Shown here in pieces: positions 50,686-61,579 of a stretch of DNA of 64,000 bases; the first letter of the stretch is position 1, and each line of letters opens with the position of its first letter. The position numbers were made by a program, and so were the translations under genes. The notes under the pieces are model-generated. The model searched no databases. It was not told the origin of the DNA and saw only the letters and a list, made by a program, of their open reading frames with translations. This stretch comes from an uncultured Bacilli bacterium (GTDB lineage: Bacteria; Bacillota_I; Bacilli_A; RFN20; CAG-449). The stretch spans positions 217,620 through 281,619 of the forward strand of contig CALVJL010000001.1 in assembly GCA_944332075.1 (NCBI GenBank). The letters run 5' to 3'.

Positions 50686-52740
50686 TTATTTGCCTTTTAA
50701 TTCTAAGCAAGCATCAATCTGAGCTAAGATTTTTGGATTAAATTCATAATCGCGCGCTTCTTCTAACGCTTTAAATAGCTTTTCATCGGAAATATATTGT
50801 TCAACATCAATATTCCCTAATGCTTGAACAGCGATAGTTCTTATCATCGCCGATTCGCTATTGAGTAACAGATGGAATAAGGCTGGATAATAAGTTTTAC
50901 TTTCATTAATATACATCACAATAGTCAAGATATTATAAAAATACCGCGGAGGATAGATAATGTTAATTTCAATTGGCACTATCTCTTTATCAGGTAAACT
51001 ATCGTTATAAATCTTAATTAATTCATCTTTATCAATAGATGATTTAACAGTTAATAATACACTTAAGAGAAGATAGTTCTTTTGAGGATTTTTTAAATAA
51101 AATGATTTTAATAATTCAACTGGATAATATTCATAATCGAGTAATAATTCGTCAATTGGGAAAGAAATAGTCTTATTATGCAATAGATAATTATCAATTT
51201 TTTTCTTAACGACTTTCTCTGGGTAATTATTTCCTAATTCGTCCGCTAAATCATATGGAGTCTTATTTTCTGTTAAAGAATCAACTCTGCTTAACCAAGC
51301 TAGTTGCTCGAGATTATCAGAATATCCCGCGTCCATAATCGTCAATAAGTTATCAGTAACAACATTATCTAAATCTTCCGGATGGAAAATTAAATAATGG
51401 GTAATCAAAACTCTTAAAGCGTTGTAGGTATCATGGTTTTCTTTAAAGTCGATTGAACCGTTGATAATAGAAACGCTATAAGTATTAAGCAGTTCTTTAA
51501 AGTTATAATTGTTTAAAATAATCTCGCTAAGAGGATAACTGAACTCTTGATATTTTAAATAGACTTTATAGAAATACTTTAAATGCTCTGGAAATCCCCC
51601 ATCAAGCGAATCGATAAAGTCAAAAGCTGCTTCAGGATTGTTGCTCTTTAAACAATGGATAAAGGCTCTTTCCATTATATTAGTTCTGAGCAGAGCCCGA
51701 TAAGAATAACGTCTAGTCGCATCTTTTTCCATATGTAACAAGTCAATAATTAAATAATCGCGATAATCATTGTTCTGATATAAGTCTTTTTGAGCGAATA
51801 ATCCTAATCCGATATTATTAATAATATAGCAGGTTGAAAGCGAAGCAAATAAACAAGCTAAAGTTCTTTTGCTCATCGCTAGAGTATTATTTTGATATAA
51901 ATAGTAATAACTATTAATAACATCATCAGTTACAGAATAAATAACATCGGCATCAAACTTTTCAGCAGTATAACCGATTCTAATAAAACGGAGCATCTGA
52001 TCAAAAGTTATATAAGCATGCTTATTTTGTTTAATTGTTTCAATAAAGTAGTTATGGACTTCATCTTTAGTCATTTCTAAAGAATTATCTAATAGATATT
52101 TTTTTGAGAAGGCTAACGCGCATAACGCGGCAAAGTCATTTTTATATAAAGTTGATAAAGTTAGATGTTTATGCTTATGGCAAACTCTCTTTTTGTATTC
52201 CATATAGGCTTTAAAGATAAAAACTGGAATCAAGCCTTCAGAAATAACGTATGGACGGAAAGCTGGAGAATAAAAGGTTCTAGTTAAAACGACATCCCCG
52301 GTAAAATCAAACTCTTCGTCAGTCAAAGAAAAATAAGTTTCATCGTTTAAATCATAATGAACATTAACTAATATTTTCTTAGCTAGTTCTACCTTATTTT
52401 TAAATAAAGCTTTATTTAAATTATGCAAAACCCGTTCGGCAAATAAAATTTCTTCAACGCGTTCTGCACGGGTAATCAAAGCTGTGCAATAATTAAAAAT
52501 TATTTTTTTAAACTCACGGCTTTCTTTTTGAGTGAAGGTCATATCTCTAGCTAAAAACAAAAGGTTATAATCATTTAAAGATGCTAATCTTTCATCAGTC
52601 AAAGTCTTATTTAAAAGTTCTGTTTTTATTTCTTTACTCAATAGATGGTTGCTTTGATGATGAGTTGCAAAATATTTTTTAAGCAAATGATCGAGATTTT
52701 GATTGTCTAGAGTTAAGATGTATTTATTAAAGATATCCAT
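50686..52740 (-). CDS. Hypothetical helical protein
   Basis: 684-aa ORF; HEAT-like C-terminal segment; no family recognised. Confidence 0.7.
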   Translation of the reverse strand: MDIFNKYILTLDNQNLDHLLKKYFATHHQSNHLLSKEIKTELLNKTLTDERLASLNDYNLLFLARDMTFTQKESREFKKIIFNYCTALITRAERVEEILFAERVLHNLNKALFKNKVELAKKILVNVHYDLNDETYFSLTDEEFDFTGDVVLTRTFYSPAFRPYVISEGLIPVFIFKAYMEYKKRVCHKHKHLTLSTLYKNDFAALCALAFSKKYLLDNSLEMTKDEVHNYFIETIKQNKHAYITFDQMLRFIRIGYTAEKFDADVIYSVTDDVINSYYYLYQNNTLAMSKRTLACLFASLSTCYIINNIGLGLFAQKDLYQNNDYRDYLIIDLLHMEKDATRRYSYRALLRTNIMERAFIHCLKSNNPEAAFDFIDSLDGGFPEHLKYFYKVYLKYQEFSYPLSEIILNNYNFKELLNTYSVSIINGSIDFKENHDTYNALRVLITHYLIFHPEDLDNVVTDNLLTIMDAGYSDNLEQLAWLSRVDSLTENKTPYDLADELGNNYPEKVVKKKIDNYLLHNKTISFPIDELLLDYEYYPVELLKSFYLKNPQKNYLLLSVLLTVKSSIDKDELIKIYNDSLPDKEIVPIEINIIYPPRYFYNILTIVMYINESKTYYPALFHLLLNSESAMIRTIAVQALGNIDVEQYISDEKLFKALEEARDYEFNPKILAQIDACLELKGK

Positions 52741-52885: not shown

Positions 52886-53671
52886 TTATAATTTATCAAT
52901 GATATCTTTACGCTTAGCAGCGTATTCTTCATCATCGATTAAGCCTTTTTCGTGTAAGTCTTTAATCTTAGCTAATTTTTCTTCAACTGTGGCTTTTTCT
53001 TCTTTTGGTTCAGGTAATGGCTTATCCTCTTTTTCTTCTGGTTTAGCTGGATTCTCTGGAGCAAATACCTTTTTAAAATCAACATCATATAATTCAACAT
53101 AAGCTGCCCCGACAAGAGTGGTTATAATCATGAAGACTAAGAAAGCAACTGTAAATCCTGATGCAGTAGAGCAAATCATAATCAATGTGACGAATAATAA
53201 GATAAATCCAACTCCCGCGATAATTTTTTCAATCATTGGTTTATCCCATTTCTTCAGCATTAATCCAAAAGCAACTGCGCCTATAACTTCAAAGACCATC
53301 AACGGGATTGCTGTCCCGCCTAAATCAATTGATCCAATTGTTGAGAAATGGATAATGACTATCAGTTGTTCAACAAATAAAACTGCTAGATACACGCCTA
53401 GTAATAAGCAAGCGAGTTTAATATCATGTTTTTCTTTAACTTCTTTTTCTTTTATTAATTGCACGAGCATTTTAATAGAAAAAACAAGAACAACTACGCT
53501 TAAAGCTAATTCTAATAGCCAAGCAACAAAGCTGCTCCAAGTTAATTCCATATAGTCAAATAAGTCAATAACATCCCCAATACTTACTAAACTACTAATG
53601 AATAACATGAAAAAAGTAAGAGTTAATAAGCCAAAAAAGGCTATAGCTAATGATTTAGAAAGCTTTTTCAT
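52886..53671 (-). CDS. Membrane protein with C-terminal SHOCT domain
   Basis: About seven TMs, then EEKLAKIKDLHEKGLIDDEEYAAKRKDII. Confidence 0.85.
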   Translation of the reverse strand: MKKLSKSLAIAFFGLLTLTFFMLFISSLVSIGDVIDLFDYMELTWSSFVAWLLELALSVVVLVFSIKMLVQLIKEKEVKEKHDIKLACLLLGVYLAVLFVEQLIVIIHFSTIGSIDLGGTAIPLMVFEVIGAVAFGLMLKKWDKPMIEKIIAGVGFILLFVTLIMICSTASGFTVAFLVFMIITTLVGAAYVELYDVDFKKVFAPENPAKPEEKEDKPLPEPKEEKATVEEKLAKIKDLHEKGLIDDEEYAAKRKDIIDKL

Positions 53672-53765
53672 TTTGTGTCCCTCTCTTTTATTTAATTTTA
53701 TTTTAAATTATTTATTGAAAATTTTCAATATCGCAGTTTAGCGGCGATTAGTTATCATTAATATT

Positions 53766-54214
53766 TCACTTTTTACTTTTCCATAAAGTATAAAGAATAT
53801 CTTTTAAAACAAGCATGGCATCTAAATCATTAAACTTATATTCTAATTTCAAATCATCAAGTAGCTTATTTATTCTTAATGCATATTTTCAATATCTATT
53901 TGCTTTTGATATTCACCTAAAATTGGGTATTTTTTACTCCAAGCTTTAGTCCAATCAATTTTATTAATTAGATTATCATTTGTATTATTAATAATATTTT
54001 GTATTTCAATATATTCTTTATCGTAATCATATAGTTCATCAATAGAAACATTATAAAGATTTGCAAGATCTTTAAACTGACAAATATTGGGAAGAGTCTC
54101 ATCGCTTTCACATTTAGAAATAGTCTGACGAGAAATATTTAATTTTTCTGCAACCTATTCTTGTGATACACCAGCTTTTTTTCTTGCAGAAAATAAGCTT
54201 TGTCCAATTTTCAT
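53766..54214 (-). pseudogene. XRE-family regulator pseudogene
   Basis: MKIGQSLFSARKKAGVSQE*VAEKLNISRQTISK...IDWTKAWSKKYPIL; TAG at 54155-54157 and a 1-nt frameshift near 53888. Confidence 0.85.
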
Positions 54215-54423
54215 AATTAGAAACAGAATCATCAGAAGATCTTTTTACCAATGATGATTTGATTCTTTTTGGTGAAATAGATATTTAATATTACATAGAT
54301 TTCTTAATCTATAACTAATTAATTGATAAGTATAATAATTAAGTAAAATCATAATAAAAAATACTTAAAATAGTTTATATTTAACAATTTTAATTTTAGT
54401 ATCAAAATAAAATAATAGTCATA

Positions 54424-54452
54424 TTGACACTAAAAAAATTTTTTTATAAAAT
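54424..54452 (+). promoter_or_regulatory. Sigma-A promoter of the kinase operon
   Basis: TTGACA-17 nt-TAAAAT. Confidence 0.75.
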
Positions 54453-54471
54453 ATTTTAAGGTGATACAATA

Positions 54472-55329
54472 ATGAAAGATTTTTCTAAATATAACATAGA
54501 TTTAGATGTATTTTATTCTGGTGCAGAACGTAAAAATCAAATTACTATCAACGATAATAGGTACATAATAAAATATCAAAAGAACTCAGAAATCGGACTT
54601 ATTTATAATCATGTCAGCGAATATTTAGGAAGTCACATATTTGACCTTTTAGGCATTCCGGTCCAGGATACCCGCCTTGGAACATATGCTGGTGAAAATG
54701 TTGTTATAGTCAGAAATTTCTGTGAAGAAGGCGAAGTTCTTGTGCATTTCAACGATATCGGAGAAAGTTCTTTAGAAGAGGATAAAGAACTATTTCAATA
54801 CTCCTATGACGATATTCAAAAGATGTTAGAAGAAAACAGAAAGCTAACCCGAGTTCAAGAAACAATAGAAAGATTTTGGGATATGTTTATTGTTGACGCT
54901 TTAAATGGTAACTTTGATAGACATGGAGGAAACTGGGGATTTATTAAAAAAGATAATAAGTATTCAATGGCTCCTGTTTATGATAATGGATCAAGTATGT
55001 ATCCAAGAATCAATACCGATGAAAGAATATTAGAAATATTAAACAATCAAGAAGAGATTGATAGACGAATTTATCAATTTCCGACATCACATATAAAGCT
55101 TAACGGTAGGAAAAGTTCATATTATGAAGTAATAAATAGTTTACAGTTTGAAGAATGCAATAAGGCATTAAAAAAAATTGTTCCAAAAATTGATTTCGAA
55201 AAAATTGATAAATTAATCGATTCTATAGAAAGCATCAGCGATATAAGAAAGAAATTTTATAAAACGATGTACCATTATCGTTATGAAAAAATACTAAAAT
55301 TAGCTTTAGATAAATTAAAAGGCAGGTGA
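54472..55329 (+). CDS. HipA-superfamily (CtkA-like) kinase
   Basis: YSGAERK loop, YIIKY, SEYLGSHIF, NFDRHGGNWG, APVYDNGSS. Confidence 0.85.
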   Translation: MKDFSKYNIDLDVFYSGAERKNQITINDNRYIIKYQKNSEIGLIYNHVSEYLGSHIFDLLGIPVQDTRLGTYAGENVVIVRNFCEEGEVLVHFNDIGESSLEEDKELFQYSYDDIQKMLEENRKLTRVQETIERFWDMFIVDALNGNFDRHGGNWGFIKKDNKYSMAPVYDNGSSMYPRINTDERILEILNNQEEIDRRIYQFPTSHIKLNGRKSSYYEVINSLQFEECNKALKKIVPKIDFEKIDKLIDSIESISDIRKKFYKTMYHYRYEKILKLALDKLKGR

Positions 55330-55333
55330 TAAT

Positions 55334-56218
55334 ATGCAGCATAATGAATATAATACGCCGATAAATATGCGTCCATATTTTAGAAATATTGGTCTCATAA
55401 AAGTCTATGATAGAGATAATAATACTTACTTAGTTGGTGAGATAGTTTTTGAAAGATTTGATGATCAGAATTATCAATACATCATTAAGCCGTATTGGAA
55501 CTGTATTGATAGTCTGCCTAAGGGATTATTTCAAGGAATTCCAGGGATTAACATGGACTTACGTAAAGAAGCTTATTACCGCGTTAATATGACACCGAGT
55601 TTTATTAGCATGCGTACTCCGAGTCAATCTAGAGAAGATGTTGACAATTTGATGAAATCTGTCGGCCTTGATTATTATGATAGATTTGAATGGTTATTAA
55701 GAAGCGAAATAAAATGCGGTGATGATAATCTTTTAGTCGTGAGAAAATCTTCAAAACCTCAGACAATCAAAGGCTTTGAAAATATCGCTGAATATAACCT
55801 TTCTCCAGATGATATTTTATCAATAGATAGTTTAAGCGATTTTCAAGCAACTAATGCAAGTATAGTTAGAAAAATTTATCAACTATTGCAGTCGTGGGTC
55901 AATATTTATATTGAAAGCGAGAATAGATATTTGCAAGATAATGAAAGAAAAGCAATGCTATATTTATTAAGAAATATACTTGTCATTATGGATAGAAACA
56001 TTAAAACCAACCGCGAAAATGGACGGGAGCAAGCAAAAGCTTTAAAACATTATCGCGGCAGAAAACCAATAAAGGTAGATTATCATCAGTTAAAACAGAT
56101 TCTCTATGAATTTGAGAATAATTTAATTTCTGAACAAGAAGCAATGCATAGGCTATCAATTAATTCAAGATCAACATTTTATAGAAAACTAAAGCTAGTA
56201 CGTAATAATTGCTTGTAA
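55334..56218 (+). CDS. Putative antitoxin/regulator: HipS-like N-terminus fused to a degenerate serine-resolvase body and HTH
   Basis: FISMRTPSQSRED...GLDYYDRFEWL; DDILSIDSLSDF in place of GDTLVV.KLDRLGR; AKALKHYRGRKP; SRSTFYRKLK. Confidence 0.6.
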   Translation: MQHNEYNTPINMRPYFRNIGLIKVYDRDNNTYLVGEIVFERFDDQNYQYIIKPYWNCIDSLPKGLFQGIPGINMDLRKEAYYRVNMTPSFISMRTPSQSREDVDNLMKSVGLDYYDRFEWLLRSEIKCGDDNLLVVRKSSKPQTIKGFENIAEYNLSPDDILSIDSLSDFQATNASIVRKIYQLLQSWVNIYIESENRYLQDNERKAMLYLLRNILVIMDRNIKTNRENGREQAKALKHYRGRKPIKVDYHQLKQILYEFENNLISEQEAMHRLSINSRSTFYRKLKLVRNNCL

Positions 56219-56387
56219 ATAAAAATGTATAACCTTTTTTCTTAAAATACTCAATAATAATTATAAATGTTATTAATGACTTATTATTTTATCCATATAT
56301 TAAAAGGTTTAATCAATTTAGTTTTTATTAATTTTGCTCATTATATTTGACATAAATAAAACAAGATTTACCTTAGTCATTTTGCTA

Positions 56388-56753
56388 TTAATCACCGTTA
56401 TGTTCAATCTTTTTCCATTTAACTTTTTTAAATAACGCAATCAAGGATAATGGAACATAGATAAAGCAAGAAAATGGGAAGAAGAAACAAGCCAAGAACT
56501 GATAAGACACCTTGCAGTCAACTTTTTTATAAGTAACAAAGAAAGTACATAATCCTGAGATAAAGGAAACGATAAAATATACCCCAATAAATGAATAGGT
56601 ACATCTTAAGATATTCATCCATCCTTCAAAATTACTAACGTTATGCAAGGCAAAAGCATCAATGCCAAATAAAACACTTTCGAATGAAACGATTAAGTTT
56701 TTAAAAACAAAAGAATATTCAACCCAAATAAATAATTTTATATCTATATACAA
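56388..56753 (-). pseudogene. C-terminal fragment of a GT2 membrane glycosyltransferase
   Basis: TM helices ending in IALFKKVKWKKIEH, typical of GT2 C-termini; no catalytic domain upstream. Confidence 0.5.
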
Positions 56754-56803
56754 AATCTGTCTTTGAGAAGCTACATATAAACTAATGTATTTTTAGTAAA
56801 AGA

Positions 56804-56906
56804 TATACCTTATAGGGTATAAATTATTTGATTATACATATTAAACACCCGATAGGGTATAAATATAACTATAAGCATTGACAAGAACCCCGAACGGGTA
56901 TAAAAT
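56804..56906 (+). promoter_or_regulatory. hipB promoter with three palindromic operator repeats
   Basis: CCY-N4-GGGTATAAA with GGGTAT at 56815, 56855 and 56896; TTGACA(56878)-17 nt-TAAAAT(56901). Confidence 0.8.
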
Positions 56907-56913
56907 TTAGTAT

Positions 56914-57120
56914 ATGAATGTAATTGCCGACTATGTAAAAAAGAATAGAAAAAAACTTGGTCTTACCCAAAAAGAATTTGCTACACGCGCAGGATTAGGT
57001 CTTCGCTTTGTACGCGAACTTGAAGAGGGCAAGAAGACTTTACGTCTTGACAAGGTCAATCAGGCGCTTGCCATGTTTGGTATGGAAGCAATTCCTGGGA
57101 GGATAGAACATGACGAATGA
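56914..57120 (+). CDS. hipB: HipB-like (Y4mF-type) HTH protein
   Basis: RKKLGLTQKEFATRAGLGLRFVRELEEGKKTLRLDKVNQAL. Confidence 0.85.
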   Translation: MNVIADYVKKNRKKLGLTQKEFATRAGLGLRFVRELEEGKKTLRLDKVNQALAMFGMEAIPGRIEHDE

Positions 57121-57445
57121 AAACTTCCGCATGGCTTATGTCTATGTTCGCAAAACCTTTGCAGGTATATTAAAGGAGACTGACGAAGGTTATTCATTTC
57201 AATATGATAACGACTATGCTTCAGATTCTTCCAATGCTCCTGTCAGCCTCACTCTTCCTCTACAAAAAGAAGAATACACATCGAAATGGCTTTTTCCATT
57301 CTTTGACGGACTTATCCCCGAAGGTTGGCTTTTAGACATAGTAACGCATAACTGGAAACTTGATTACCGTGACAGATTCGGTATTTTATTGGTTGCTTGT
57401 AAAGACGCAATAGGTGCAGTCAGCATAAGGAGTGAAAAGAAATGA
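57110..57445 (+). CDS. hipS: Stand-alone HipA N-terminal domain (HipS-like)
   Basis: YSFQYD, PVSLTLP, FPFFDGLIPEGW, DAIGAVS. Confidence 0.85.
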   Translation: MTNENFRMAYVYVRKTFAGILKETDEGYSFQYDNDYASDSSNAPVSLTLPLQKEEYTSKWLFPFFDGLIPEGWLLDIVTHNWKLDYRDRFGILLVACKDAIGAVSIRSEKK

Positions 57446-58392
57446 AATGCTTATGTTGCAACAAAATTATAGCCGATAACGCTTCCGACAATGAAAAAAT
57501 CAATGATTGGCATACTAAGTGCGTCAAACAATTTTTTGGAACTTCAAAATTCCCGATGATAGATATTTCAAGCAAAAATCTTGTAGAAATTGCAAGAGAA
57601 AGTACAAATAAAGGTTTTACTGTTCCTGGTGTACAGAAGAAACTATCTCTCCACTTTGAAGGTGGAGCTAAGCCAAGACTCACTTTGTCAAACTATCCTA
57701 CAGGTTATATACTTAAACCGCAGACTGAAGAATACAAAGCTCTGCCAGAAGCTGAATTTTTAGTAATGAGCATGGCGAAAATTACGGGCATTAAAACAGT
57801 ATTGTTCGCACTTGTAAAACTTGACAATGGCTATGCCTATATAACCAAAAGAATTGATCGAGAAGGCGAAAATATGCTTGCTATGGAAGACTTCTGCCAG
57901 CTTGATGAAAGACTAACCCAAGACAAATACAAAGGCTCTTATGAGCGTTGCGCAAAACTAATAGATAGATATTCCGAGCAAAGAGGTTTTGATATGTCTG
58001 AACTCTTCTTGCGACTTGTATTCAGCTTTGTTGTAGGCAATTCTGATATGCATTTGAAAAACTTTTCGCTAATTGAAGATGGTGCAGGCAGTCAGAAATA
58101 TATGCTTTCATCTGCATACGATTTGTTACCTGTCAATGCCATACTGCCCGAAGATGACGAGCAGTTTGCTCTTACCATTAACGGCAAAAAGCGCAATATT
58201 CACAAAAAAGATTTTCTTTTATTCGCTGAAAATGTTGGCATACCTGCTTTAGCAGCAAAAAAAATCATAGCCGATATAGTATCCCTTGAAGATACTTATA
58301 TCTCAATGTGTAAAGATAGCTATCTGCCTGAACATTTAAAAGCAGCTTTGATTGATATAATTACATCACGTACGAGCGTTTTGCGGAGCTGA
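57442..58392 (+). CDS. hipT: HipA C-terminal kinase toxin (HipT-like)
   Basis: TVPGVQKKLSL, YILKP, EDFCQL, GNSDMHLKNFS, SAYDLL; N-terminal CxxC...HxxC. Confidence 0.85.
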   Translation: MKCLCCNKIIADNASDNEKINDWHTKCVKQFFGTSKFPMIDISSKNLVEIARESTNKGFTVPGVQKKLSLHFEGGAKPRLTLSNYPTGYILKPQTEEYKALPEAEFLVMSMAKITGIKTVLFALVKLDNGYAYITKRIDREGENMLAMEDFCQLDERLTQDKYKGSYERCAKLIDRYSEQRGFDMSELFLRLVFSFVVGNSDMHLKNFSLIEDGAGSQKYMLSSAYDLLPVNAILPEDDEQFALTINGKKRNIHKKDFLLFAENVGIPALAAKKIIADIVSLEDTYISMCKDSYLPEHLKAALIDIITSRTSVLRS

Positions 58393-58458: not shown

Positions 58459-59091
58459 TTGAGAAAAATAGATGATAAATTATCTGAATTCATATATTGT
58501 GAACGAAATGGGAAGCTTTTGAAGAAAACCAATAAAACAATTTTATTAGAAAGCGAAATTGTCTACCCATTTGTAAAGGCACCTAGTATAGATGATAATG
58601 AAATAACAAGTACCGAATTATATTGTATATTTCCATATCCAATGGGTGCTAAGCAACCTTATGATTTAAAGTATGTAAGAACTCATTATCCACATTTTTA
58701 TAATTTCCTTATGTCTAAAGAGGTTCAACATGCAATTAATACTTCATCATCATATAACCAAAGAATACAAAATGTTGGTGATAATTATGGAATATTTAGG
58801 GTGGGAGAGTATACATGGTCAGACTGGTTTTTGATAACAAGAGATAACACTAAATCATCATTTGCTGTTTGCGGAAAGCTTAAAACACCTTGGGGAGAAA
58901 TTAAACAGCCTATATTTGATGGGCATGTAAATTATGTGTCTCGTGATGAAAACGGAAATCCAATAACTAAAGCTAGGGCATATGATTTATTTAAAAAGTT
59001 TACAAGAGAAGGTGTTAAATTATACGTTAAATGCTCTTCTGATTCTCGCTCAATATCAGGAAGATTGTATAATGATATCGATTTAAGTTAA
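58459..59091 (+). pseudogene. Probable C-terminal fragment of a DNA methyltransferase / RM protein
   Basis: No SD, TTG start directly after hipT; YPFVK..IFPY and RVGEYTW..RDNTK..PWG patterns recall MTase target-recognition regions; no catalytic motifs. Confidence 0.35.
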
Positions 59092-59311: not shown

Positions 59312-60537
59312 ATGGAAATATGTACTAACCTTATAGGTGAATTATCTTGCTTAAAAATGATGAATATTAAACCTAATTTTTCAGATTTATCTAGAAGATA
59401 TAAGATAGATCGACATACTATTGCTAAATATTATAGAGAAGGGGGAAAATTTACAAAAAAAAAGCGAAAAAATCAAAATTCTGTCTATGATAAATATTTA
59501 AATGAAATTATAGAAATATTATCTCAACCCGGAGTAAGTAAAGTTGCTGCTTACCAATATCTAGTTGGAAAATATCAAGACTTTCATAAAAACTATAATA
59601 CATTTAAATCTTTTACATTAAGAAAAAATATTACACCTACTAAAACTAAAGTTGAACCGCATGTTCGATACGAAACTAAACCAGGAGAACAATTACAAGT
59701 TGATTGGAAGAAAAGTGTGAAAATGACATCTAAAACAGGAGAAGTATTTGATTTTAATATCTTTACTGCCACTATGGGTTATTCTAGATTACATTTATTT
59801 TCTTATTCTAAAACTAAAACGACTGAAGATTTTATCCGGTGCACAATTGAAACATTTAGAAAGTTAGGTGGTCTTCCTAACCATATCTTAACTGATAACA
59901 TGTCCACAGTTGTTTCTATTACCAATGGGACTAAATTCAAAAATTATAAAATTAAACAATTTGAAAAAGATATTGGTTTAAAAATTAAATTATGCAAGAC
60001 TAAGTCACCTGAAACAAAAGGTAAAGATGAATCTTCTAATCGATTTATTTCTTGGTTATTGCCATATGATGGGAAATTTGCTGATGAATCGGAATTGATA
60101 TCAATTATTGATAAAATCAATCAACAAGTTAATAGACAATCTAATAGGACCACTAATATGCCTCCTATTACTCTTTCCCTAAAGAAAAAGAATATCTAAA
60201 ACCTCTTCCTAATAAACTTCTTCTTGAATCTTATATAGAAGGAGTTTTGACTCAAACTGTGCCATCAACACTGCTTGTTTCTTATAAAGGCTCTGGATAT
60301 TCTGTTCCACCGAAATTTATTAACAAAAGGGTCAAACTAATTCCTATTGATAATAAACTCTATATTTATTATAACGAGTTATTAGTTACTGTTCATTCTT
60401 TATCATCAAATATATTTAATTATAAAAACGAACATTATAAAGATGCTTTGAAAATTAGAATTTCTTCTAAAGGTGATGATTCAATTGAAGAAATGGCTTC
60501 TAACAATCTTAAAATGTTTGATTATATGAAAAAATAA
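59312..60537 (+). pseudogene. istA: IstA transposase, frameshifted near 60180
   Basis: RYETKPGEQLQVDW, LTDNMSTV, PETKGKDE; continuation KEKEYLKPLP...YSVPP lies in the -1 frame. Confidence 0.85.
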
Positions 60538-60545
60538 GGAGTATT

Positions 60546-61304
60546 ATGCAAAATAATTTTACTAAATTAATAAACAATCTTAATGAACTTTCTTTATTTA
60601 AGATTTCTAATAACATTGAAAATTACATTACTGCAATCAGCAATGGTAATATGTCTATTGTTGATGCACTTTATGAACTTACCAATCTTGAAATTGACTT
60701 AAAACATGAAAGAGCTATGAATGCTTGTGTTAAAGTTGCTAATTTCCCTTTTATTAAAACTTTTGATGATTTTGATTTTTCTTTTCAGCCTTCCATTAAC
60801 AAAGATCAAATTGTTAACTTTAAGTATTTATCTTTTATTGGAAATAAAGAAAACATCATCTTTATTGGCACTCCAGGAGTTGGCAAAACTCATCTGGCTA
60901 CGTCTATTGGAATCGAAGCTGCTAAACAAAGAACTTGTACTTATTTTATTTCTTGTAACGATCTAGTTCTTCAATTAAAGAGAGCTCGCATTGAAAATAG
61001 ATTAGAACAACGCATTAAATTCTTTTGTAAGTATAAATTATTAATTATTGATGAAGTTGGTTTTCTTCCGTTAGATGTCGAATCTAGTAATCTTTTCTTT
61101 CAATTGATTGCTAAAAGATATGAAATATCTTCTACTATTATTACTACTAACAAACCTTTATCTAAATGGGGTGAGATATTTGGCGATGCTGTTCTTGCTA
61201 ATGCCATCCTTGATAGATTACTTCATCACGCGAATGTTATTAATATTGTCGGTCGTTCTTATAGAACTAAAAACTTAATTTCAGAATTGGAGGATGATAA
61301 TTAA
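60546..61304 (+). CDS. istB: IstB ATPase
   Basis: GTPGVGKTHLA, LLIIDEVGF, RYE, ILDRLLHH. Confidence 0.95.
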   Translation: MQNNFTKLINNLNELSLFKISNNIENYITAISNGNMSIVDALYELTNLEIDLKHERAMNACVKVANFPFIKTFDDFDFSFQPSINKDQIVNFKYLSFIGNKENIIFIGTPGVGKTHLATSIGIEAAKQRTCTYFISCNDLVLQLKRARIENRLEQRIKFFCKYKLLIIDEVGFLPLDVESSNLFFQLIAKRYEISSTIITTNKPLSKWGEIFGDAVLANAILDRLLHHANVINIVGRSYRTKNLISELEDDN

Positions 61305-61368: not shown

Positions 61369-61579
61369 TGCGTCCATATTTTAGAAATATTGGTCTCATA
61401 AAAGTCTATGATAGAGATAATAATACTTACTTAGTTGGTGAAATAGTTTTTGAAAGATTTAATGATCAGAATTATCAATACATCATTAAGCCATATTGGG
61501 ACTGTATTGATAGTCTACCTAAGGGATTATTTCAAGGAATTCCAGAGATTAACATGGACTAACGTAAAGAAGCCTATTA
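61369..61579 (+). repeat. 211-bp diverged copy of 55368-55578
   Basis: TGCGTCCATATTTTAGAAATATTGG...GAAGC(C/T)TATTA; about eight substitutions by manual comparison, one creating TAA. Confidence 0.92.

Follow-up and report, generated by a model that had tools for sequence, protein, structure and literature searches.

HipA-family kinases are central to research on persistence and toxin-antitoxin (TA) systems, and the locus described here raises the question of what such a kinase does when its gene opens the operon and the protein encoded behind it ends like a site-specific recombinase. The locus occupies positions 54424-56218 of a 64,000-nucleotide stretch of DNA, called the window below, from an uncultured Bacilli bacterium (GenBank assembly GCA_944332075.1, contig CALVJL010000001.1). 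Kinase-first clade XI modules of this kind are known only from a phylogenetic survey published in 2021 and from the PADLOC candidate list. Our analysis finds an intact CtkA-like kinase followed by a partner protein in which a conserved kinase-companion domain is joined to the truncated, catalytically dead remainder of a small serine recombinase, together with a conserved inverted repeat on the promoter that may serve as the operator of that partner. With somewhat better than even confidence, we read the pair as an autoregulated kinase-first TA-like or defence module in which the N-terminal domain (N-domain) of the partner would restrain the kinase and the resolvase-derived dimer would repress the promoter.

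The kinase-first operon

The promoter, the two open reading frames (ORFs) and the motifs of the kinase lie in the window as follows.

54424-54452, plus strand: sigma-70-type promoter, TTGACA (54424-54429), 17-nt spacer and TAAAAT (54447-54452), agreeing with the consensus at 11 of 12 positions
54458-54464, plus strand: ribosome-binding site of the kinase, AAGGTGA, read from the sequence
54472-55329, plus strand: CtkA-like kinase ORF, 285 aa, stop codon TGA
54517-54534, plus strand: Gly-rich loop of the kinase, S16-G-A-E-R-K21, present
54907-54933, plus strand: catalytic loop GNFDRHGGN (residues 146-154; D149-x-H151-x-x-N154), present
54976-54996, plus strand: VYDNGSS (residues 169-175) with the Mg-binding D171, present
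55334-56218, plus strand: partner ORF, 294 aa, start codon ATG

Both ORFs have the same orientation and are separated by a gap of 4 nt (TAAT) between the TGA of the kinase and the ATG of the partner, and one promoter drives both the intact kinase gene and the partner gene that follows it so closely. The promoter is the joint best match within 53600-57000, the other being that of the next operon, which encodes HipBST. The number of promoter-like sites in this interval does not exceed that in shuffled controls, and an 11 of 12 match alone proves little. We judge the promoter to be real because both hexamers are conserved across related loci (94-100% per position for TTGACA and 76-92% for TATAAT in 49 non-redundant loci), and not because of its match score.

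The kinase matches Pfam HipA_C (PF07804) at 2e-18, and its residues 15-278 align to Helicobacter pylori CtkA (PDB 3akj) with an E-value of 1.6e-45 and about 40% similarity; HipT-type kinases reach only about 2e-3 against it, and the PADLOC PDC-M03A model matches over its full length at 1e-32. With a conserved K34 in addition to the motifs listed above, all four Hip kinase motifs are found, and they are kept in at least 97% of 71 kinase homologues. D149 and D171 align with D155 and D179, the catalytic residues of CtkA. The protein consists of the kinase core only: it is 285 residues long, has its Gly-rich loop already at residue 16 and is without HipA N-subdomain 1. On these alignments and motifs it is assigned to the CtkA-like core-only subgroup of the HipA superfamily. 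A preliminary description of the locus, drawn from its letters alone, had put forward a consensus promoter, an intact CtkA-like HipA-superfamily kinase and a partner gene 4 nt downstream, and all three are borne out by the ORF coordinates, the complete motifs and the matches given here.

The two halves of the partner

Four segments of the partner can be distinguished.

55334-55753, plus strand: kinase-companion N-domain, residues 1-140, with the invariant motifs FQGIPG, YYRVN, RTPS.SRE and GLDYYDRFEWLLR..CGDDN
55754-55933, plus strand: remnant of a resolvase catalytic core, residues 141-200, equivalent to about resolvase residues 45-100 (beta3, helix D, beta4), from hmmsearch, hmmalign and AlphaFold2
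55937-56071, plus strand: helix E equivalent and minor-groove arm, residues 202-246, with G230, A234, Y240, G242, R243 and GRKP, matching AlphaFold2 helix 202-236
56081-56218, plus strand: resolvase-type helix-turn-helix (HTH), residues 250-294 plus the stop codon, with the recognition helix SRSTFYR, from hmmalign and Foldseek

Searched alone, the partner sequence has no match in Pfam, NCBIfam or the PDB sequences, and its relationship emerges from its family, which numbers 1,248 homologous clusters at E up to 0.001, mostly from gut Firmicutes. A profile built from 44 homologues matches the Tn3, Sin and gamma-delta resolvases in a search of the PDB by hmmsearch (E 5e-4 to 3e-3), aligning partner residues of about 137-288 to resolvase residues of about 36-181, and PF00239 is touched by 32 of the 44 members, at best with 1.6e-6. 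The AlphaFold2 model of the partner (mean predicted local distance difference test score, pLDDT, 86) has one 35-residue helix, 202-236, with three short ones behind it. Its top ten Foldseek matches in the PDB are all Tn3, gamma-delta or Sin resolvase-DNA complexes, the best being Tn3 resolvase 5cy1 (E 1.2e-4, probability 1.00), so that the C-terminal half does model as a resolvase fold, as the preliminary description had expected.

Residues of Tn3 resolvase were mapped onto the 44-member family by hmmalign.

Tn3 D59: partner D160, Asp in 43 of 44
Tn3 D67: partner S168, not conserved in the family
Tn3 R68: partner D169, Arg in 0 of 44
Tn3 R71: partner A172, Arg in 0 of 44
Tn3 E118: partner M219, lost
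Tn3 E124: partner T225, lost
Resolvase catalytic R125: partner N226, the catalytic Arg not kept
Tn3 G129, A133, G141 and R142: partner G230, A234, G242 and R243, invariant in 44 of 44
Tn3 R172, T174 and Y176: partner R279, T281 and Y283, invariant in 44 of 44
Tn3 K177: partner R284, Arg in 44 of 44

The beta1 strand, Ser10 and helix A are not reached by any of the alignments, the earliest of which begins at resolvase residues 31-37, and the partner family has no invariant serine at a Ser10-equivalent position. The recognisable resolvase is therefore limited to residues of about 45-183, with the Ser10-bearing segment absent or replaced by the N-domain. Relatives of 250 aa have in addition lost about 23 residues of the core remnant and retain the helix, the GRKP arm and the HTH. 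Because the catalytic residues and the Ser10 segment are lost while the residues of helix E, the arm and the HTH are invariant, the C-terminal half is a descendant of a small serine recombinase in which the enzyme is gone and a DNA-binding, dimerising scaffold is kept.

The preliminary description had arrived at a similar picture by eye, and its alignment of LSPDDILSIDSLSDF with GDVILVKKLDRLGR, the losses of the YxRVS serine and of the DRLGR arginines, and the retained GRKP and SRSTFYR are all reproduced by hmmalign. Its term "dead resolvase" is right as to inactivity and incomplete as to cause, since the protein is not merely mutated but also truncated to the portion just described. Its proposal of a recombinase derivative kept for DNA binding is supported by the invariance of the DNA-contact residues that we checked and by a conserved res-like repeat on the -35 box. 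A reading in which Y81-Y-R-V-N85 represents Y-x-R-V-S with Ser replaced by Asn, making residues 80-294 a whole resolvase with an insertion, was rejected as the main reading: the part up to about residue 140 also occurs apart from the rest, in standalone, leucine-rich repeat (LRR)-fused and STAND-fused forms, and across this wider family the motif at the YYRVN position is only Y-x-R-x-N/D.

The N-domain is the most conserved part of the partner family. It is built of a three-strand beta meander, then one strand, helices and a last strand, and it contains an invariant loop, S92-M-R-T-P-S-x-S-R-E101, which has low pLDDT in a model of the domain alone. An N-domain profile finds 302 representative clusters among 1.8 billion proteins, with varied C-terminal ends: standalone proteins of 130-190 aa, proteins of 245-336 aa with the resolvase-type end, an LRR_5 fusion (P0157) and N-terminal fusions to nSTAND3 NTPases of about 1,470 aa (P0248, P0252). 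Five of the six informative N-domain genes lie directly downstream of a HipA_C kinase gene, including those for P0248, P0252, P0157 and the 143-aa standalone P0160, and the sixth is an orphan. The N-domain is thus a separable companion of HipA_C kinases, whatever it is fused to. At two loci (L082, 252-5526; L171, 2144-7431) a HipA_C kinase of 258-287 aa precedes a protein of about 1,470 aa in which the N-domain makes up the first 130 residues and is joined to an nSTAND3 NTPase, an arrangement that looks like a kinase-effector STAND system. At two others, a 153-aa ORF that comes after a 208-aa P-loop protein (L080, 5962-6423) and an N-domain-only match (L081, 1664-2074), there is no kinase nearby, and these genes may be orphans or remnants.

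The preliminary description had called this half HipS-like. The motifs to which it pointed are present and highly conserved, yet no method gave a statistical resemblance to HipS. Couple_hipA (PF13657/TIGR03071) has no match at E up to 1 in the partner or any of 44 relatives in Pfam and NCBIfam searches, whereas the genuine HipS encoded about 900 bp downstream scores 2e-25 for it. With HHalign, a 99-sequence N-domain alignment against a 52-sequence HipS/HipA-N alignment gave P 0.28, compared with 0.42 for a reversed control; over two HipS/HipA-N profiles P was 0.16-0.31, below that control, with a colinear path over 69-90 columns. Foldseek with the domain-only model (pLDDT 74) returned nothing below E 0.26 and no HipS or HipA, and the full-length model likewise found no HipS or HipA structure. 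PADLOC PDC-M03B models match partner residues 57-133, weakly (2.6e-5). By our own reading the order of secondary-structure elements is compatible with HipS, and a very remote homology may exist; as a label, HipS was rejected, the Pfam, NCBIfam, HHalign and Foldseek results all being non-significant. What the data support is only a functional analogy to HipS, given that in every architecture examined the domain is encoded beside a HipA_C kinase without N-subdomain 1.

Putative operator, gene pairing and proposed function

By aligning the 130 nt upstream of the kinase in related loci, we found a repeat on the promoter.

54399-54430, no strand assigned: putative operator, imperfect inverted repeat GTATCAAAAT-N12-ATATTGACAC, outer span 32 bp, right arm overlapping the -35 box

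The repeat, GT(A/G)TCAAAA(T/C)...CTATTGACAC with an outer span of 30-32 bp, precedes the kinase gene in about 68 of the 72 related loci. Per position, CCTATTGACAC is 76-100% conserved in the 49 non-redundant loci, which is beyond the needs of a -35 box, and TATAAT follows 17 nt later; by our estimate from base composition, a correctly spaced left arm would arise by chance with a probability of about 0.002 per locus. In both half-sites the outer TGTC or TATC is followed by an A/T-rich tract, and the Tn3 site III oligonucleotide TGTCTGATA...TAAGGTACA has half-sites of the same style (PMC9943657). Tn3 res site I exceeds the 25-bp site III by 3 bp (PMC9943657), and the T-to-A span of the putative operator, 28-30 bp, is therefore in the range of a resolvase dimer site. 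Because the conserved repeat lies on the -35 box and the arm and recognition helix of the partner are invariant, autorepression by a partner dimer bound at this site would be the most economical reading.

The two genes are tightly paired. Of 80 genome loci selected on the partner, about 72 have the kinase gene directly in front of it; of 80 metagenome loci selected on the kinase, 78 have room for a partner gene directly behind it, and all 78 carry one there. Conservation is consistently higher in the kinase than in the partner (65% against 46% identity in one example), and a toxin more conserved than its antitoxin is the usual pattern. The pairing is broken in the closest relatives of the locus. 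In L002, an uncultured gut Bacilli metagenome-assembled genome and the closest genome match, and in L001 (partner protein 98% and 100% identical, respectively), the whole kinase ORF is missing, and the partner ATG comes immediately after the promoter and putative operator (L001, 9940-10003; L002, 5940-6003). A three-way alignment reveals a repeat at the corresponding borders in the window.

55292-55336 and about 54429-54474, plus strand: imperfect direct repeat of about 45 nt, the first copy in the kinase 3' end and partner ribosome-binding site, the second in the leader

The two copies flank the kinase ORF, which suggests that the kinase was deleted in L001 and L002 by recombination between them. 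Orphan partners, which are to be expected if the partner does no harm by itself, occur in L001, L002, L019, L176 and the loci encoding P0207, and kinase remnants are found in L023 and L030.

The module also sits in defence islands. In the window its immediate neighbour is HipBST. In L001 an AAA_21 gene pair lies upstream and genes for Gabija and a type I restriction-modification (RM) system lie downstream, and the surroundings in L174 and L175 include genes for SLFN-type helicase/MazG, MqsRA, TIR-LRR, Cas12a, nSTAND-UvrD, Fic and RelA_SpoT proteins.

From these observations we infer a TA or defence function with toxicity of the kinase and its neutralisation by the partner. The partner would dimerise through its resolvase-like core and helix E, and the dimer would bind the putative operator as a resolvase binds a res subsite, repressing the operon. 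The N-domain would bind the kinase and keep it inactive, the job that HipS performs on HipT. If the partner were depleted or displaced, for example by phage infection or loss of the locus, the kinase would phosphorylate an essential target, probably a translation factor by analogy with HipA and HipT, and growth would stop.

Several observations weigh against this autoregulated TA-like or defence module. Intact kinase ORFs stand beside truncated partners in L155 and L153 and beside frameshifted partners in L120, L146 and L147, and a strict toxin should not tolerate a broken partner unless these cases reflect assembly errors or silent kinases. Gene decay was rejected as a pointer to toxicity, the orphan partners being balanced by these broken ones. 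Searches of plasmid and phage collections did not find the partner, which leaves a plasmid-addiction role unsupported; for the kinase they gave only distant relatives (27-37% identical, in different gene contexts), and a scan of viral_contigs with the kinase found nothing. The N-domain lacks significant homology to HipS, and for that reason the neutralisation mechanism is drawn from genomic context alone. Literature searches on PDC-M03, HipM/HipP and HipA-like anti-phage kinases returned no experimental characterisation, and CtkA itself is reported to be a secreted, host-directed kinase acting via the tfs3 type IV secretion system, not a TA toxin (PMC5536186).

The main rival, to which the STAND and LRR fusions point, gives the partner the opposite role: as a sensor or adaptor it would activate the kinase instead of restraining it, with the C-terminal module detecting an invader, here through res-like or structured phage DNA, and the kinase acting as an abortive-infection effector. 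The N-domain occupies the N-terminus of nSTAND3 NTPases, which is the usual effector or recruiting position in STAND immune proteins, and is also fused to LRRs; DNA sensing has been proposed for HIRAN-containing partners of Hip kinases (PMC8262856). The defence-island setting fits as well, and an intact kinase beside a broken partner (L155, L153) would be easier to tolerate if the kinase were inactive by default. However, the only conserved DNA target that we found is the promoter of the module itself, which points to autoregulation, and the tight gene order and faster-evolving partner fit an antitoxin. On balance we consider activation by sensing unlikely.

Somewhat less probable again, in our estimation, is a non-toxic signalling pair in which the kinase phosphorylates the repressor, for instance in the RTPS loop, and so switches its own operon and perhaps other operators. 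The invariant, poorly ordered loop S92-E101, with its low pLDDT, would suit such a role, the operator is conserved, and orphan partners would survive as plain regulators. Against this, the characterised bacterial HipA-family kinases are all known as growth-arresting toxins, the N-domain also occurs without the DNA-binding module, in standalone, LRR and STAND forms, and the locus sits in defence islands; no second copy of the operator was noticed, although no search for one was made.

We consider it very improbable that the kinase is secreted to act on a host in the manner of H. pylori CtkA, and that the partner serves merely as its transcriptional regulator. The roughly 40% similarity to CtkA over the full length (E 1.6e-45) and the reported action of CtkA on the host via tfs3 (PMC5536186) speak for it, but the C-terminal tail proposed for secretion of CtkA is H. 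pylori-specific (PMC5536186), no secretion system lies near the locus, and the module occurs in many gut Firmicutes, where it is found in defence islands. The idea that the partner still recombines DNA, as the site-specific recombinase or invertase of a mobile element with the inverted repeat as its crossover site, would draw on the resolvase similarity, the res-like repeat and the IS21 element and partial second partner copy nearby, and it merits practically no credence, being effectively refuted by the catalytic residues (Ser10 segment absent, R68 and R71 never Arg in 44 members, E118 and E124 lost, part of the core deleted in relatives) and by the single site per locus, placed on the promoter.

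A broader generalisation of the favoured module, which we put forward tentatively and do not regard as the expected outcome, is that the 140-aa N-domain is a universal leash or adaptor that plugs CtkA-like kinases into interchangeable modules, among them the dead resolvase, LRRs and STAND NTPases. If so, the locus would belong to one modular kinase-based immune family and would not be a simple TA pair, and its resolvase-derived module would read its own operator and possibly also the res-like or recombination-intermediate DNA of an invader, leading to release of the kinase. The STAND and LRR fusions link Hip kinases to immunity of the pattern-recognition type, which, if confirmed, would widen the range of effectors in bacterial immunity. 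For future work the family offers a putative recombinase-turned-repressor with a defined candidate operator of 30-32 bp, a separable kinase-companion domain without detectable relation to HipS, and near-identical natural strains with and without the kinase gene.

Neighbouring genes and known systems

A canonical HipBST operon lies directly downstream of the partner (window 56878-58392), with its own 11 of 12 promoter at 56878-56906, and its three genes overlap.

56914-57120: HipB, Xre-type (TIGR03070, 5.9e-22)
57110-57445: HipS (Couple_hipA, 2e-25)
57442-58392: HipT (HipA_C, 1.5e-44)

The window thus carries two different Hip kinase systems side by side. Beyond them, at 58459-59091, a 210-aa ORF has a PADLOC match (about 1e-5) only to C-terminal parts of type II/IIG RM enzymes and is probably a truncated RM remnant. 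An IS21-family element follows at 59312-61304, composed of a 295-aa ORF with an rve domain (59312-60199), which looks short for IstA, and IstB (60546-61304; IstB_IS21, 6.8e-75); it stands where L001 has the Gabija and type I RM genes after HipBST. Just after this element, at 61369-61579, the 5' portion of the partner gene (codons of about 12-82) recurs as a decayed second copy of 211 bp, with about 95% identity to the intact gene and a stop codon in it.

Upstream of the operon, on the minus strand at 53760-54214, the window has a pseudogene of a 148-aa Xre-type HTH protein that is intact in L001, with a CAG to TAG stop at about codon 19. Compared with L001 the window is without the adjacent pair of genes encoding an AAA_21 ATPase and a 220-aa protein, and compared with both L001 and L002 it is without about 240 bp, including the start of a 53-aa ORF. 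Farther upstream, a 684-aa ORF (50686-52740, minus strand) without a Pfam match, conserved in L001, is flanked by a sugar-nucleotidyltransferase gene and a gene for a SHOCT-domain membrane protein.

HipBST, the tripartite TA system of Escherichia coli O127 and Legionella, resembles the module in having a kinase without HipA N-subdomain 1, an adjacent small domain thought to neutralise it and a DNA binder presumed to be an autoregulator. The two differ in gene order, which is B-S-T with the kinase last in HipBST and kinase first here. They differ too in that HipS is a clear Couple_hipA protein and HipB a separate Xre-type regulator, whereas here the companion is without Couple_hipA similarity and fused to a resolvase-type DNA binder. 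With the small serine recombinases the partner shares helix E, the GR arm, a C-terminal HTH_7-type domain and an (A/S)RST(V/F)Y(K/R) recognition helix, and its putative target resembles theirs, an inverted repeat spanning about 28-30 bp in which outer TGTC borders an A/T-rich interior. Unlike these enzymes it lacks the beta1/Ser10 segment and has lost D67, R68 and R71, which makes it a repressor-like derivative and not a serine recombinase, and where a resolvase res has three subsites there is here one site, on the promoter. CtkA (JHP0940; 3akj) is the closest solved structure to the kinase, of the same length and fold and with D155 and D179 in the places of D149 and D171, and we know of no partner of the dead-resolvase kind described for it. 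CtkA differs from the window kinase in being cargo of the tfs3 integrative and conjugative element, in its H. pylori-specific C-terminal tail, a proposed secretion signal (PMC5536186), and in its reported host-directed role.

The module fits both the PADLOC candidate PDC-M03 and the predicted hipMP type. The A models of PDC-M03 match the kinase over its full length (1e-32) and the B models match partner residues 57-133 (2.6e-5); the B models, of 232-245 positions, match within the N-domain only and leave the resolvase half uncovered, and the PDC entries are unvalidated candidates. The hipMP modules, each a HipM kinase with a HipP putative antitoxin, were described from five examples by Gerdes, Baerentsen and Brodersen (2021, mBio; PMC8262856), who postulated, as a prediction only, that the gamma-delta-resolvase-like HipP is a DNA-binding, autoregulating antitoxin. 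The preliminary description was right that kinase-first operons with gamma-delta-resolvase-like partners had been predicted, and, as it had also held, we found no experimental work on them. The present module shares with hipMP a short, core-only kinase (279-321 aa in the survey, 285 aa here), the kinase-first order and a resolvase-like partner downstream, a fit that is judged by gene order, kinase size and partner type. HipP was described only as resolvase-like, whereas the partner here can be resolved into an N-domain that accompanies HipA_C kinases and a truncated, catalytically dead resolvase, and its operon carries a conserved putative operator.

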